A DNA stretch of 64,000 nt, taken from positions 13,943 through 77,942 of the forward strand of contig JACPQZ010000048.1 of the NCBI GenBank assembly GCA_016190205.1, written 5' to 3'. The position numbers were made by a program, and so were the translations under genes. The DNA comes from Candidatus Omnitrophota bacterium (GTDB lineage: Bacteria > Omnitrophota > JACPQZ01). Under the pieces are notes generated by a model. That model did no database searches and was not told where the DNA came from. It was given only the letters and a program-made list of their open reading frames with translations. Shown here piece by piece: positions 15,284 to 63,465 of the stretch. Position 1 is the stretch's first letter. Each line of letters begins with the position of its first letter.

Positions 15284-15314
15284 CGTGAATCGTGGATCGT
15301 GAATCGTGAATCGC
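15284..15314 (+). repeat. Heptamer tandem repeat (CGTGAAT)x4 upstream of bcp
   Basis: cgtgaatcgtggatcgtgaatcgtgaatcgc. The same heptamer recurs at 29132-29160 and 30291-30310. Confidence 0.8.
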
Positions 15315-15776
15315 AAAGAAAATAAACCAGGAGTGGGTGATAAGGCGCCGGAGTTTAAGCTGGCTTCAACATCCGGCAGGATGGTGAGCCTTTCCGATTA
15401 TAAGGATAAGGCCGTGATCCTCTATTTCTATCCCAAAGACTTTACTCCGGGCTGTACGCAGGAGGCGTGCGACTTTCGGGATGGCCATGCTGCCCTGAAG
15501 AAAAAGGGGGCCATCGTTTTGGGCGTAAGCCCCGACCCAGTTGAAAAGCATCAAGAGTTTGTGAAGGAATACCAACTGCCGTTTGAATTGCTCTCCGACC
15601 CCGACCACACGGCGGCCAAGAATTTCGGTGTGTACGGCCAAAAGACCCTCTACGGCCGTACGTTCATGGGGGTTCAGCGCTCCACGTTTTGTATCGATCC
15701 CGAAGGAAAGGTCAAGGCCGTCTTTCCAAAAGTGAAGGTGGACGGACATGTCCAAGAGGTCCTCGACTGTCTATGA
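15306..15776 (+). CDS. bcp: Peroxiredoxin Bcp (PrxQ)
   Basis: Motif YFYPKDFTPGCTQEAC. Confidence 0.85.
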   Translation: MNRKENKPGVGDKAPEFKLASTSGRMVSLSDYKDKAVILYFYPKDFTPGCTQEACDFRDGHAALKKKGAIVLGVSPDPVEKHQEFVKEYQLPFELLSDPDHTAAKNFGVYGQKTLYGRTFMGVQRSTFCIDPEGKVKAVFPKVKVDGHVQEVLDCL

Positions 15777-16965
15777 CGTGGGCGTGGTGGGGGGCGGGAT
15801 TATCGGTCTCGCCGCCGCTTATGTGCTTCTCAAGAGGCGCCCGGGACTAAAGCTCGTTCTTTTTGAAAAGGAAGCGAGGTTTGCCCAGCACCAGACGGGC
15901 CATAACAGCGGGGTGATCCACTCCGGGATTTATTATAAACCCAGCTCGCTCAAGGCCCGGCTTGCGGTTCGGGGGGGAGCGCTCCTCACAGACTTTTGCG
16001 ACCGCCATGGGATCCGTTACGTGCGCTGCGGCAAGGTTATTGTGGCGCGCGAGCCCCGGGAGGTCTCCTACCTCAAGGACCTCCACGAGCGCGCTGGTCA
16101 GAACGCCATTCCCGATGTCTCCTTGATCAGCGCGGAGCGGCTCAAGGCGGTCGAGCCCGCTGTGCAGGGGATTATGGCGCTCTACCTGCCGCAGGTCGCC
16201 ATTGTAGATTTCCGGGAGGTCGCGGCGGGACTCGCCCGGGAGATCGCGCGCGACGGGGGCGAGATCCTTGTGGGGGCGCGCCTGACGGGGCTTGGAAAAG
16301 GGGCCGCCTGGGTTTTTAAGACGGCGCGCGGCGAATATGAGGCGCGGTCATTGTTAAACTGTAGCGGTCTCCACGTGGACCGCATCGCCCGCATGGCGGG
16401 CGCAGACCCAAAGGCGCGCATCGTCCCTTTTCGTGGCGAATATTTTGTGCTGCCTCCAAACCGGGCCTCACTCGTCAACGGGCTCGTTTACCCTGTACCG
16501 GATCCAGAGCTTCCCTTTCTGGGCGTGCACTTTACCAAGACCCTGGACGGCGGCGTGCACGTGGGGCCGAACGCGGTCCTCTCCTTAAAGAGGGAGGGCT
16601 ATAGCCGGGCGAGTTTTTCCCTCCGGGATACCGTTGAGCTTTTGAGTTACCGCGGTTTCTGGAAGATGGCGGCGCGGCACTGGGAGACAGGCCGAAACGA
16701 GCTCACTCGCTCAATATGGAAGGGAAAGTTCCTAGAAGAGGCGCGCCGGCTGGTCCCGTCTCTAGAGCCCGGCGATCTTATCCCGGCGCCCGCCGGCGTT
16801 CGGGCACAGGCCGTAAACCGGGAGGGGGGGCTCGAGCAGGATTTCATTCTCGAAGAAGGGCGCAATAGCCTCCACGTCTTAAACGCCCCGTCTCCGGCTG
16901 CGACTGCGTCCCTTGCCATCGGGGAGTACATCGCGGACCATTTTGGGGGAAACTATGATAGATAG
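15748..16965 (+). CDS. lhgO: L-2-hydroxyglutarate oxidase/dehydrogenase (FAD-dependent)
   Basis: N-terminal FAD motif VGVVGGGIIGLAAA. LhgO/YgaF-like throughout. Confidence 0.75.
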   Translation: MSKRSSTVYDVGVVGGGIIGLAAAYVLLKRRPGLKLVLFEKEARFAQHQTGHNSGVIHSGIYYKPSSLKARLAVRGGALLTDFCDRHGIRYVRCGKVIVAREPREVSYLKDLHERAGQNAIPDVSLISAERLKAVEPAVQGIMALYLPQVAIVDFREVAAGLAREIARDGGEILVGARLTGLGKGAAWVFKTARGEYEARSLLNCSGLHVDRIARMAGADPKARIVPFRGEYFVLPPNRASLVNGLVYPVPDPELPFLGVHFTKTLDGGVHVGPNAVLSLKREGYSRASFSLRDTVELLSYRGFWKMAARHWETGRNELTRSIWKGKFLEEARRLVPSLEPGDLIPAPAGVRAQAVNREGGLEQDFILEEGRNSLHVLNAPSPAATASLAIGEYIADHFGGNYDR

Positions 16966-17088
16966 AAACCAGAGACCAGTAACCAGTTACCAGATAGATT
17001 CCAGAAACCAGATACCAGAAAGTTGCCATGCGAGCTGGTCTCTGGTATCTGGTCTCTTCTGGTTTCTGGTAACTGGTATCTGGTTACT
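16966..17088 (+). repeat. ACCAGA-heptamer array arranged as a long inverted repeat (about 55-bp arms, about 14-bp loop), MITE-like
   Basis: The left arm (aaaccagagaccagtaaccagttaccagatagattccagaaaccagataccagaa) is nearly identical to 53017-53068. The right arm is its reverse complement. Confidence 0.75.
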
Positions 17089-17120
17089 TATTCAAAGTCA
17101 GGAATCTAGGCGGTGAGAGC

Positions 17121-17321
17121 ATGCCATACGTCAATATCAAAATCGCCAAGGGAAACGTAACGCAAGACCAGAAGGCCCGCCTCATTCAGGGCGCCACCCG
17201 GCTTTTGAAGGACGTTCTGGATAAGGATCCCAAGTCAACTTATGTTGTTATAGATGAGGTAGATACGGATAATTGGGGGGTAGGTGGAGATAGTTTGACG
17301 GCCATTCGCAGCAGGCGCTAA
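17121..17321 (+). CDS. 4-oxalocrotonate tautomerase family protein
   Basis: 66 aa, starting MPYVNIKI (Pro1) after Met. Confidence 0.75.
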   Translation: MPYVNIKIAKGNVTQDQKARLIQGATRLLKDVLDKDPKSTYVVIDEVDTDNWGVGGDSLTAIRSRR

Positions 17322-61629: not shown

Positions 61630-62377
61630 AATTAAGGTAGGCCTTATGGCCTTGATCGGACTTATCGTTTTGGCGATTCTCGTGTTTTCCATCGGTGACT
61701 ATAACTTTTTCCAAAAGCGAAAGCAGATAAACCTTGTTTTTAATTACGCGGGCGGCGTGGAGGAAAGCGCCCCCGTGCGCCTGGCCGGCGTCAAGATCGG
61801 CGAGGTACACAGCGTAGCCCTGGTTCCCGTTTACGACCAGATGGAACAGAAGACGGGCGTCCAGGTGCGCGTGTGGCTCGACCGGAGCATTGATATCTAC
61901 GAGAATGCCGATGTCTACGTCAACACCCTGGGTCTATTGGGCGAAAAATACATCGAGATCCTAACCCCCGGAACGACTGACCAACCGCTGGTCAAGCATG
62001 GCGGCATCCTGCGGGGTCACGATCCCGTGCCCATTGAGAAAATCACCCAAAGCACGCATGAGATCGTCGGCGACCTCCGGACCCTCTTGGGGGGGCTCAA
62101 TGATGTCGTCGGGGACGAGGAGTTTCGAGAGTCGCTCAAGACCACGGTCTACCATTTTGAGACAACGGCCGACAATTTGAGAGACGCGACTTCCAAGATG
62201 CGCGCGGGGGAGGGGTCTTTGGGCAATTTTGTTTATAACGACTCTCTCTACAATGAGCTCGATGGATTTGCGCGTGAGATCAGAAAGAATCCGTGGAAGC
62301 TTTTGAAGAAACCCAAGACGGATGAGAAGGAAGCCGAGCAAAAAGGCGGAGATTCCAATCGCGGATTTTTAAATTAG
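61607..62377 (+). CDS. mlaD: MCE-domain protein
   Basis: N-terminal TM helix plus an MCE domain. Follows mlaEF. Confidence 0.8.
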   Translation: MKEQIGLEIKVGLMALIGLIVLAILVFSIGDYNFFQKRKQINLVFNYAGGVEESAPVRLAGVKIGEVHSVALVPVYDQMEQKTGVQVRVWLDRSIDIYENADVYVNTLGLLGEKYIEILTPGTTDQPLVKHGGILRGHDPVPIEKITQSTHEIVGDLRTLLGGLNDVVGDEEFRESLKTTVYHFETTADNLRDATSKMRAGEGSLGNFVYNDSLYNELDGFAREIRKNPWKLLKKPKTDEKEAEQKGGDSNRGFLN

Positions 62378-62426
62378 TGGATGGTCGGTATATGTTGCTT
62401 TATAAGTCTAAAAAGAGAGGTGTGAA

Positions 62427-63428
62427 ATGCTTTGGTTGGTAAGAGGTTTGTTTTTGATATTGTTGGCGGGCTTGGGGTTTGAGTTCGGTCCCTATTTACT
62501 GCCGGCCCAGCCCATGGCCCCGTGGATCGGAGTCGGCATCGGGGCGGGGGTAGCGCTCCTTTTCGTTCTCCTGGAGACTTTGCTCAAAACGCTCGCGCTC
62601 CGGACGATGGTGGCGGTAGTCATCGGGCTGGGCGTCGGCCTTGCCGTCTCGTTCCTGGCTTTTTGGTTTTTGGGTCAGATGCACTGGGTCTTGGTGGAGG
62701 AATCGTGGGCCAAAGGCGTCGTCACCCTGATTCTTTGCTACCTCTCCGTGATTTTAACGCTAAAGGGCCAGGAGGAAATCAGTTTTCTCATTCCCTACGT
62801 GAAGCTCTCGCACCAGGAAGGCCGGGACAACTGGATCATCCTGGATACGAGCGTGATTATTGACGGCCGTATCGCGGATATCTGCGATACGAATTTCATC
62901 AACGGGCGCTTTCTCATACCGCGCTTCGTGCTCAAGGAACTCCAGGTCATTGCCGACAGCTCCGATTCCCTGAAGCGCAACCGGGGCCGCCGGGGTCTGG
63001 ATGTCTTGAACCGGATCCGCAGGAATAACCGGGTGGAGGTCAGGATCCACGATGCCGACTTCCCGGAGGTGAGCGAGGTGGATTCCAAGCTTGTAAAGCT
63101 CGCCCTCCTGGTCAACGGCAAGATCTTCACCAACGACTTTAACTTAAACAAGGTGGCCGAGCTCCAGGGGGTCCCCGTTCTCAATATCAACGAACTGGCC
63201 AACGCCTTGAAGCCGGTAGTTCTGCCGGGCGAGATGATGGACGTGCGCGTCATTAAGGAAGGCAAGGAATATGGGCAGGGCGTGGCTTACCTGGATGACG
63301 GCACAATGATTGTCGTGGATAATGCCAGAGAGCGGATCGGGCAGAATCTAAAAGTTTCTGTCACGAGCGTTCTTCAGACCCAGGCCGGACGCATGATCTT
63401 CGCCAAGATCGTGGAGGGGGCCCGGTAA
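62427..63428 (+). CDS. yacL: Membrane PIN + TRAM domain protein (YacL-like)
   Basis: TM helices, then a PIN domain (IILDTSVIIDGRI), then a C-terminal TRAM domain. Lies upstream of ispD, as in Bacillus. Confidence 0.7.
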   Translation: MLWLVRGLFLILLAGLGFEFGPYLLPAQPMAPWIGVGIGAGVALLFVLLETLLKTLALRTMVAVVIGLGVGLAVSFLAFWFLGQMHWVLVEESWAKGVVTLILCYLSVILTLKGQEEISFLIPYVKLSHQEGRDNWIILDTSVIIDGRIADICDTNFINGRFLIPRFVLKELQVIADSSDSLKRNRGRRGLDVLNRIRRNNRVEVRIHDADFPEVSEVDSKLVKLALLVNGKIFTNDFNLNKVAELQGVPVLNINELANALKPVVLPGEMMDVRVIKEGKEYGQGVAYLDDGTMIVVDNARERIGQNLKVSVTSVLQTQAGRMIFAKIVEGAR

Positions 63429-63434
63429 GAAGTA

Positions 63435-63465
63435 GGACGTTGGACGTGGGACGTGGGACGTGGGA
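63435..63465 (+). repeat. Heptamer tandem repeat (GGACGTG)x4
   Basis: ggacgttggacgtgggacgtgggacgtggga. Confidence 0.8.

Follow-up and report, generated by a model that had tools for sequence, protein, structure and literature searches.

The short tandemly repeated repetitive (STRR) sequences of cyanobacteria have the heptanucleotide units CCCCAGT, TTGGTCA, and CAACAGT, and repetitive extragenic palindromic (REP) elements are single palindromes of ~35 nt that are conserved in sequence, are present in hundreds of copies, and are linked to RAYT transposases. Long simple sequence repeats (SSRs) with units of 5 to 11 nt (LSSR5-11) were reportedly found by Mrazek, Guo, and Shah mainly in large genomes. 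Here, we place in the context of these and related systems a set of tandem heptanucleotide arrays, some of them with a reverse-complement partner, that occupy gene junctions in one 64-kb window (the whole stretch of DNA analyzed, from contig JACPQZ010000048.1) of the chromosome of a Candidatus Omnitrophica metagenome-assembled genome (MAG). Heptanucleotides are, in the excerpts of PMC4679880 and PMC4692102 that cite Mrazek (2007), the most abundant class of long SSR in most repeat-rich prokaryotic genomes, and polymerase slippage tied to the length of DNA that touches the active site is given there as the proposed cause. Excerpts of the latter paper (Rehm et al. 2015, PMC4692102) also describe GGGAATC arrays of Xanthomonas that form 70-75 convergent inverted pairs and potential stem-loops, place heptamer arrays within Nostoc operons (e.g., in the pecE-pecF spacer), and have inverted pairing of heptamer arrays as rare in Nostoc. 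In the Beggiatoaceae, direct repeats of TAACTGA lie just upstream of start codons, and this unit is scattered in cyanobacteria and Bacteroidetes (MacGregor, PMC4679880). Finally, the (ATCTTTC)n tract in the 5' untranslated region (5'UTR) of Haemophilus influenzae hmw controls expression and forms a long hairpin, which RNase III cleaves (PMC12721329, 2025).

Given the precedents from Mrazek, Xanthomonas, the Beggiatoaceae, and hmw, the window arrays belong to the known heptanucleotide SSR class and are not a new kind of element; they extend the class to a new phylum and add to it a local density that is unusually high, many unit types in one genome, a hairpin nested within another, and a duplicated composite. 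We consider it probable, at roughly 60%, that the intercistronic spacers of this Omnitrophica chromosome have been colonized by heptanucleotide microsatellites that were born by slippage and are kept where insertions and deletions (indels) of 7 nt are harmless, any effects of the hairpins on RNA being secondary. Array calls with Tandem Repeats Finder (TRF) at period 7 returned 12 loci of 3.3-9.3 copies spread across the whole window, all on the + strand (Table 1), in agreement with an earlier reading made from the sequence alone (the sequence-only reading), which had proposed at least 12 loci with a 7-mer that differs from one to the next. At least nine unit types were found at these loci, most of them as arrays at a single locus. 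The family had been placed at 15284-63465, which is too narrow, as two of the units then listed, GGGAAGC (1467) and GCAGTAC (3555), lie upstream of that start. Arrays are present in 11 of the 54 gene junctions of the window, and a twelfth lies in the 3' end of atpA; the proposed location at gene junctions thus holds for the 11, with the reservation that the atpA array (3555-3585) sits in the coding tail and that the array at 29132 holds the stop of an open reading frame (ORF). Arrays occupy about 46% of the spacers that are 30-400 nt long and make up 926 of ~5,600 intergenic nt.

The period itself is highly specific. A self-match detector found 12 segments at period 7 in the window and none at each of periods 4, 5, 6, 8, 9, 10, 11, and 12, and 20 block shuffles of the window gave no segments at any period from 4 to 12, which bears out the expected enrichment of period 7 over shuffled sequence. 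With the same detector, 1.37 Mb of comparison DNA around clpC from 80 other genomes contained 13 period-7 segments, i.e., the period-7 density of the window is ~20x that of the comparison DNA; period 7 is the commonest in the 80-genome set as well, with 13 segments versus at most eight for any other period. The window arrays therefore show two of the features that mark an LSSR, iteration of the unit beyond chance and a predominance of period 7 over neighboring periods, and they resemble LSSR5-11, as far as the excerpts portray these, in being tandem 7-nt units beyond chance length, mostly noncoding, sporadic in phylogeny, and presumably generated by slippage. They depart from those reports in their host, a member of the Omnitrophota, and in the very high local density given above.

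The arrays abut the flanking genes closely, starting 0-20 nt 3' of the upstream stop and ending 6-37 nt 5' of the next start. Three begin in or directly after a stop codon (16964, in that of a DAO oxidoreductase gene, 52283, and 53012), and the ORF of the AhpC/TSA gene opens at a GTG (15306) within the TCGTGAA array. GGAG or AGGA motifs are found at the expected Shine-Dalgarno position at 26950, 60812, 54230, and 63465. In the first of these cases, the 21-mer array occupies the entire spacer between the SufU/NifU_N gene, which ends at 26890, and the ATG of the FeS_assembly_P gene (26957), with the GGAG of its units in the Shine-Dalgarno position; this array is also partly self-complementary (z -3.4, where folds are predicted RNA folds scored as z against dinucleotide shuffles and transcription is inferred from operon context). 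The final GGACGCA unit of 60782-60812 holds an AGGA 7 nt before the mlaF ATG, and the GAGAGGA that follows 54197-54230 is likely the Shine-Dalgarno site for mcsA. The AtpA ORF (2060-3610) reads through four ACGCAGT units, which leaves a tail of ~25 residues past the last Pfam domain (ending at residue 491 of 516) that is missing from the homologue in metagenome contig L118; the atpA stop overlaps the atpG start at 3607 (ATGA). In the ATP synthase operon of L118, which is 72-77% identical to that of the window at the DNA level, GTTACCA x4 lies in frame within atpG (2118-2156), where it replaces a variable loop of about equal length (IQLPVTSYQLPEY in the comparison with the window loop). Two pairs of window units are one-base neighbors (CGTGAAT/CGTGCAT and GGACGCA/GTACGCA), which shows no relatedness because ~0.85 such pairs are expected by chance (our own estimate, from 45 pairs in 14 registers each).

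Table 1. Heptanucleotide arrays and predicted hairpins of the 64-kb window. All arrays listed were called by Tandem Repeats Finder (TRF); energies, z-scores, and base pairs refer to predicted RNA folds.
Feature	Position	Strand	Call	Energy (kcal/mol)	z	Pairs	Context
GGGAAGC x4.3, then degenerate units	1467-1506	+	TRF				Fills spacer from ATP synthase b gene (969-1457) to delta gene (1515-2060)
ACGCAGT x4.4	3555-3585	+	TRF				Inside 3' end of atpA (2060-3610)
TCGTGAA x4.4	15283-15313	+	TRF				Between Bax-inhibitor-like gene (ends 15262) and AhpC/TSA gene
ACCAGNN units, one irregular 10-nt unit	16964-17021	+					Left arm of inverted-repeat element, copy 1
CTGGTNN units	17035-17084	+					Right arm of copy 1; 37 nt upstream of tautomerase gene
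21-mer TGCGTTG TGCGTGG AGCGTTG x2.9, 100% match	26891-26950	+	TRF				Three 7-mers per unit
CGTGAAT x4.1	29132-29160	+	TRF				Upstream ORF (27513-29150) stops on TGA within array
Mosaic, TCGTGAA to TCGGTNA units in one register	30287-30331	+					Left hairpin arm, just downstream of tRNA-Met (30191-30265)
CCGATCA-type x9.3	30421-30486	+					Right arm, complementary to 30287-30331; arms enclose ~90 nt
AGACCCG x4.6	52283-52314	+					Starts in stop codon of FtsX-like permease gene; upstream of ABC ATPase gene
ACCAGNN	53012-53067	+					Left arm of copy 2; starts 1 nt after ABC ATPase gene stop
AAATTCG/AAATCCG units	53079-53134	+					Inner left arm of second hairpin, nested in loop of copy 2
CGAATTT/CGGATTT units	53148-53209	+					Inner right arm, complementary to 53079-53134
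CTGGTNN	53211-53254	+					Outer right arm of copy 2; 16 nt before ATG (53271) of ilvE-like aminotransferase gene
TCGTGCA x4.6	54154-54185	+					Left hairpin arm between ilvE (ends 54140) and mcsA
GCACGAA x4.9, perfect	54197-54230	+					Right arm; adjoins GAGAGGA
GGACGCA x4.4	60782-60812	+	TRF				Between mlaE (ends 60735) and mlaF (ATG 60820)
GGACGTG x4.4	63435-63465	+					7 nt after PIN-TRAM gene stop (63428); runs into GGAGGAAGG purine tract
Hairpin	16960-17092			-69.9	-10.3	47	
Hairpin, nested	53008-53262			-98.7	-10.1	90	
Hairpin	54150-54234			-37.7	-4.6	26	
Hairpin	30284-30490			-78.7	-4.2	65	

The gene order LysS-FtsX-ABC-IlvE-McsA-McsB-ClpC-MlaE-MlaF-...-PIN/TRAM-IspD is kept in five Omnitrophota-like contigs (L001-L005) and in L206 and L207, and the closest contigs recovered have an IlvE identity of 79% (L205, which is short), 74% (L206), and 71% (L207); the best match to the window ClpC among GTDB representatives is 71%. 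In these relatives, the FtsX/ABC, ABC/IlvE, IlvE/McsA, and MlaE/MlaF genes overlap or are separated by mostly <45 nt (one junction has 65 nt and one ~95 nt), and no period-7 array is found at the orthologous junctions of L001-L005, L205, L206, and L207. Because the orthologous junctions of syntenic relatives at 71-79% protein identity are free of arrays, the window arrays are young and lineage-specific, and the same finding argues against a conserved regulatory role. It also favors one of several suggestions made in the sequence-only reading, in which some repeat-generating mechanism left the arrays as its footprints. The expectation that arrays would be conserved in position but variable in sequence failed in this comparison, which instead reveals gains at varying junctions. 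L001 has a single array, TCTCCGG x4, at the LysS/FtsX junction, where the genes overlap in the window; in L189, a Suf operon contig of ~70% DNA identity, an inverted CTGGTTG/ACCAGTN pair separates sufB from sufC (z -4.8), a junction without an array in the window.

In the explanation that we favor, replication slippage or tandem duplication would seed and enlarge the arrays, with a preference for a 7-nt unit that is intrinsic to the process, and purifying selection would remove them except in spacers, C-terminal tails, and protein linkers. As 7 cannot be divided by 3, arrays would survive only where indels are harmless, and the cases seen in coding sequence are the C-terminal tail of the window atpA, the variable loop of atpG in L118, and the interdomain linkers of a large ORF in metagenome contig L157. 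Array-plus-complement pairs may arise through strand-switch (inverted) duplication, and an ectopic conversion or transposition-like event could then copy or homogenize arrays between loci. A signature of slippage is seen at 54 kb, where a perfect 34-nt arm stands opposite a variant-bearing arm, and in the mosaic arrays at 30287 in the window and in contig L122; perfect arrays are recently homogenized ones. On a polycistronic mRNA, paired arrays would form long imperfect hairpins with helices of 5-7 bp broken once per heptad, which, by analogy with hmw and with REP elements or bacterial interspersed mosaic elements (BIMEs), may shield the 3' ends of upstream transcripts, serve as RNase III cleavage sites, or uncouple the translation of neighboring cistrons. 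Such effects on mRNA are plausible, as side effects rather than the reason for the arrays.

Five hairpin loci had been proposed from the sequence alone, and those at 17, 30, 53, and 54 kb are well supported by folding (z -4.2 to -10.3); the fifth (60745-60815) is not, as the fold of 60740-60816 shows no gain over shuffles (z +0.1) and leaves the proposed partner at 60745-60775 unsupported. No significant structure emerged in the fold test for the unpaired arrays at 1460, 15278, 29128, 52280, and 3550. The stems are interrupted regularly, with helices of 5-7 bp (12 at most) between which each heptad leaves one or two bases unpaired; in the 54-kb hairpin, the arms pair in blocks of 6 bp, and each heptad has one A-A mismatch. 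The two arms of this hairpin differ systematically at one base per unit, and since the perfect arm faces a variant-bearing one, they have been homogenized separately. Between the two arms of the ACCAGNN element, the variable NN positions show no covariation. A scan of the window placed no terminator-like or promoter-like consensus on any array, and the absence of terminator-like matches at the arrays leads us to reject an identity as intrinsic (Rho-independent) terminators, i.e., a GC-rich stem followed by a U tract.

The resemblance to STRR sequences that the sequence-only reading had pointed out is upheld, in that several heptamer families are dispersed over many intergenic loci, operon-internal spacers included. 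So is the unusual setting claimed for it: the host is not a cyanobacterium, the window McsB and IlvE matching proteins of a Candidatus Omnitrophica MAG at 100% identity, and arrays lie inside operons, in spacers of the ATP synthase, Suf, McsAB-ClpC, and Mla operons. STRR sequences proper are ruled out by this host and by the unit sequences, as no window unit equals any of the three STRR units named above. Like REP/BIME sequences, the paired arrays are imperfect palindromes between co-directional genes, presumably co-transcribed in operons and, as far as the ACCAGNN family shows, dispersed in copies, and by this analogy protection or processing of mRNA 3' ends would be their likely effect; unlike REP/BIME sequences, they have arms that are 7-nt periodic and that vary in sequence from locus to locus, only the ACCAGNN family occurring twice within the 64 kb.

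Inverted pairing is frequent in the window and, in the excerpts of PMC4692102, rare in Nostoc. The Xanthomonas GGGAATC arrays described in the same excerpts are likewise intergenic, many with a reverse-complement partner, and differ in length and sequence between relatives; convergent inverted pairs of this kind occupy the four window loci with significant folds (17, 30, 53, and 54 kb), and one window array (1468-1491) corresponds to the G3N4 quadruplex motif. Xanthomonas, as excerpted (PMC4692102), has essentially one unit family versus at least nine unit types in the window, and its loci are mostly common to Xcc and Xac, whereas those of the window are shared with no relative at 71-79% protein identity, a contrast weakened by the far greater distance of these relatives from the window than of Xcc from Xac. 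The nesting of one hairpin in another, as found in the window, is not described in the excerpted passages on Xanthomonas. A quadruplex explanation of the arrays was rejected, since the canonical motif (GGGN4 x4) occurs only once in the window, at the GGGAAGC locus, and the other arrays lack a G3 tract in every unit. As in hmw, a transcribed heptamer array makes up one arm of a long imperfect hairpin, predicted in the case of the window, and hmw offers a concrete way in which a structure of this sort could alter expression and repeat dynamics. However, hmw is one phase-variable adhesin promoter/5'UTR locus with a nonrepeat, G-rich partner arm, whereas the window has many housekeeping junctions and arrays in both arms. 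An identity as phase-variation contingency loci was rejected as well, as the arrays lie at ATP synthase, Suf, ClpC, Mla, and aminoacyl-tRNA gene junctions and not at surface or virulence genes. With the Beggiatoaceae TAACTGA repeats, the window arrays have in common heptamer direct repeats a few nucleotides 5' of start codons and the scattered phylogeny of one unit; TAACTGA is a single unit, in two to six copies and with 1 of 170 sets inverted, in contrast to the many units and frequent inverted pairs here.

Several observations weigh against locally born microsatellites as a full account. The 17-kb and 53-kb ACCAGNN elements, 36 kb apart at unrelated junctions, are 92% identical over 59 nt in their left arms and 94% over 48 nt in their right arms, and both have the same order of unit variants, with irregular units of 10 nt (left arm) and 9 nt (right arm). 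As the identity extends to variant order and irregular units, the two elements are copies of each other; independent slippage cannot give such agreement, and some copying step is therefore needed. A second heptamer hairpin (AAATTCG/CGAATTT, 53079-53209) is nested exactly in the loop of the 53-kb copy, and similar nesting occurs in L157, which looks more like insertion than growth in place. The ACCAGNN x4 pattern matched at least 120 metagenome contigs with a GC content of 0.36 to 0.72, which is not predicted if units have a purely local origin. Furthermore, GGA/GGAG-type motifs directly 5' of starts in several arrays also fit selection for translation, the preference for 7 nt is not explained by anything tested, and the view is that of a single window.

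Among the contigs matched by ACCAGNN x4, six (L088, L152, L154, L157, L122, and L123) harbor many different heptamer arrays, inverted and nested ones included, and in L088, the ACCAGNN and AAATYCG unit families co-occur. The strand of the ACCAGNN arrays relative to flanking co-directional ORFs was sense in 14 and antisense in six of the metagenome matches, a difference that we judge, without a formal test, not to be significant; this analysis is weak, as its crude ORF model placed many of these arrays inside long open frames. L157 carries four arrays at 4755-5260 (GGAATGC, CTGGTNN, ATTCCGC, and CTCTGTC), two of which form an inverted pair around a third, and these encode interdomain linkers (e.g., TSDQRPV repeats) of a 973-residue putative FabA/PfaC-like ORF (assigned by eye). 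In one metagenome, ACCAGNN arrays in L096 (7-64), L110 (1028-1099), and L126 (3439-3531, reverse strand) have a common 3' flank, ACGGAAYCACTCTTGCTGACAACTG, which suggests that the organism concerned has a dispersed element composed of the array and a fixed flank; L096 and L110 are possibly one locus. Heptamer arrays are also found in named MAGs of the clpC set, from Phycisphaeraceae, Chthoniobacterales, Gemmata, Longimicrobium, and Acidimicrobiia, and an inverted pair in the Phycisphaeraceae MAG has a predicted fold of -66 kcal/mol (z -6.5). Pattern searches of IMG/VR (three period-7 cores, one period-8, and one period-6) gave at least 120 matches each, and two of the controls overlapped the query pattern.

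The copying at unrelated junctions and the precise nesting would also be accounted for if the inverted arrays were nonautonomous mobile elements of the REP/BIME type or MITEs (miniature transposable elements with inverted repeats), served by a transposase in trans and moving perhaps into single-stranded hairpin loops, with the unpaired arrays as decayed or half elements; we judge this unlikely, though a serious contender. The co-occurrence of two unit families in L088, the conserved flank in L096, L110, and L126, and the presence of ACCAGNN arrays in many unrelated taxa point the same way. However, the homology of the two window copies ends exactly at the array ends, and comparison of their flanks revealed no target-site duplication and no conserved termini or flanks at either copy; an identity as MITEs was rejected on these grounds, homology being limited to the arrays with no flanking direct duplication. 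There is no transposase or RAYT among the window proteins scanned, and no further copy with the variant order of the window is found among the at least 120 metagenome matches listed. With at least nine units in 64 kb, mostly at single loci, each would require its own element family, and the perfect arms opposite variant ones, together with the mosaics, are typical of slippage in place.

Slightly more doubtful is the proposal that selection acts on the arrays as cis-regulatory elements of polycistronic mRNAs, in which the hairpins would be sites for RNase III or other processing, 3'-end stabilizers, or translational insulators, and unpaired arrays immediately 5' of starts would offer repeated binding sites to the ribosome or to an RNA-binding protein (S1, Csp, or CsrA-like), a role also suggested for TAACTGA of the Beggiatoaceae; a DNA-level version, with heptad arrays as cooperative protein-binding sites, is possible. 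The precise abutment on stops and starts, the four motifs at the Shine-Dalgarno position, and very stable predicted hairpins (z down to -10) whose heptad interruptions leave no perfect duplex >12 bp would all suit such a role, for which the RNase III-cleaved hairpin of hmw (PMC12721329) and the placement of TAACTGA just 5' of starts (PMC4679880) are precedents. A primary regulatory role is nonetheless less likely because positional conservation is lacking, the syntenic relatives at 71-79% protein identity having tight, array-free junctions, and because the units are so diverse that no single binding protein fits. In addition, the flanking genes are unrelated housekeeping genes without a common function, the arrays have no terminator-like features, the two arms show no covariation at their NN positions, and arrays lie within coding sequence in other genomes.

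A more far-reaching proposal, which we find improbable, is that a period-7-specific process of repeat making and copying is active in this lineage and in scattered bacteria, by which arrays would be seeded, inverted, and nested and entire composites would be copied from one operon junction to another, the hairpins being co-opted as intercistronic modules of RNA processing or insulation. Candidates for such a process are hairpin-loop-targeted single-strand transposition and a template-switching polymerase activity. If so, the arrays would not be passive microsatellites but a new class of element, structured and either mobile or regenerating.

Two contigs from Logan (L081 and L082, runs SRR12113385 and SRR12113390) match the window with three mismatches in 3420 nt and none in 2213 nt, and both start (1-30 in each) within the perfect GCACGAA array at 54201, which is therefore not an artefact, since two independent assemblies reproduce its sequence. 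Both contigs carry McsB; exact-protein look-ups aimed at array-spanning contigs from other samples gave matches for McsB only and none for IlvE, MlaF, or the FeS_assembly_P protein. That the arrays are assembly or sequencing artefacts, e.g., from collapsed or chimeric reads, is effectively refuted: the source is a short-read MAG and independent short-read contigs do break at a perfect array, but the arrays are 30-66 nt long, presumably shorter than a typical short read, the array at 54201 is identical in the two assemblies, a like architecture is found in many other assemblies and in the published isolate genomes of the PMC4692102 excerpts, and array positions conform to reading frames and gene boundaries.

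The window is a stretch of bacterial chromosome with nearly all genes on the + strand, and it encodes the b, delta, alpha, and gamma subunits of ATP synthase, the Suf Fe-S operon, TilS, LysS, the FtsX/ABC pair, the IlvE-like aminotransferase, McsA/McsB/ClpC, MlaE/MlaF, and the PIN-TRAM protein. The one-strand arrangement and a giant ORF might suggest a phage; this origin was rejected, as a megablast search against phage records was empty and the genes are bacterial housekeeping genes. That ORF (33388-47361, +) encodes 4657 residues, and across its 14 kb, TRF returned only a weak, 2.3-copy period-7 match (45431-45446). The sole clear minus-strand genes of the window, at 47373-47990, are a PIN-domain ORF (47373-47774, Pfam 2.5e-11) and a short upstream ORF, a pair that looks like a toxin-antitoxin pair. 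A stretch of low GC content (0.46-0.50 at 10000-14500 versus 0.55-0.62 elsewhere) contains no heptamer arrays and harbors a HicB/HTH antitoxin-like gene, ORFs without a Pfam match, a Laminin_G_3/PEP-CTERM fragment, and long noncoding gaps; it may be an acquired island. Within it, at 10658-10693 in the spacer after an SPFH/Band 7 gene, lies a perfect tandem duplication of 18 bp, CATGGCACACGTGTACCA x2, with the palindrome CACGTG in each unit, and at 14140-14437 an initiator-type tRNA-Met(CAU) gene that was not called by ARAGORN. This gene has a CGCGGGG... acceptor and a GGG/CCC anticodon stem, and its anticodon loop is split by a group I intron at 14163-14369 (52.1 bits against Rfam RF00028); group I introns in tRNA-fMet are known from cyanobacteria. 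A small palindromic repeat, GCAGACACAC[A/C]AGGGTGTCTG, occurs twice in tandem at 20039-20080, upstream of an Rrf2 regulator gene, and a third time after tilS at 49468-49492; this dispersed, REP-like hairpin has no relation to the heptamer arrays. Finally, a long imperfect palindrome with inner hairpins, GCGTCATTGCGAG...CTCGCAATGACG, at 615-700 is not heptamer-periodic and precedes a small ORF for a putative ATP synthase subunit c.

The dominance of 7-nt units among bacterial long microsatellites is an old question, and the window offers a natural system for studying the origin of heptamer arrays, which here are dense, young, and diverse and include composites within conserved housekeeping operons. 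The relatives display the ancestral, array-free state, so that birth, growth, inversion, and copying could be reconstructed with closer relatives or population reads. There are practical consequences as well: arrays can lengthen or encroach on reading frames, the AtpA tail being an example, with effects on gene calling in MAGs, and short-read assemblies break at perfect arrays, so that heptamer arrays likely fragment the assemblies of this and similar organisms.

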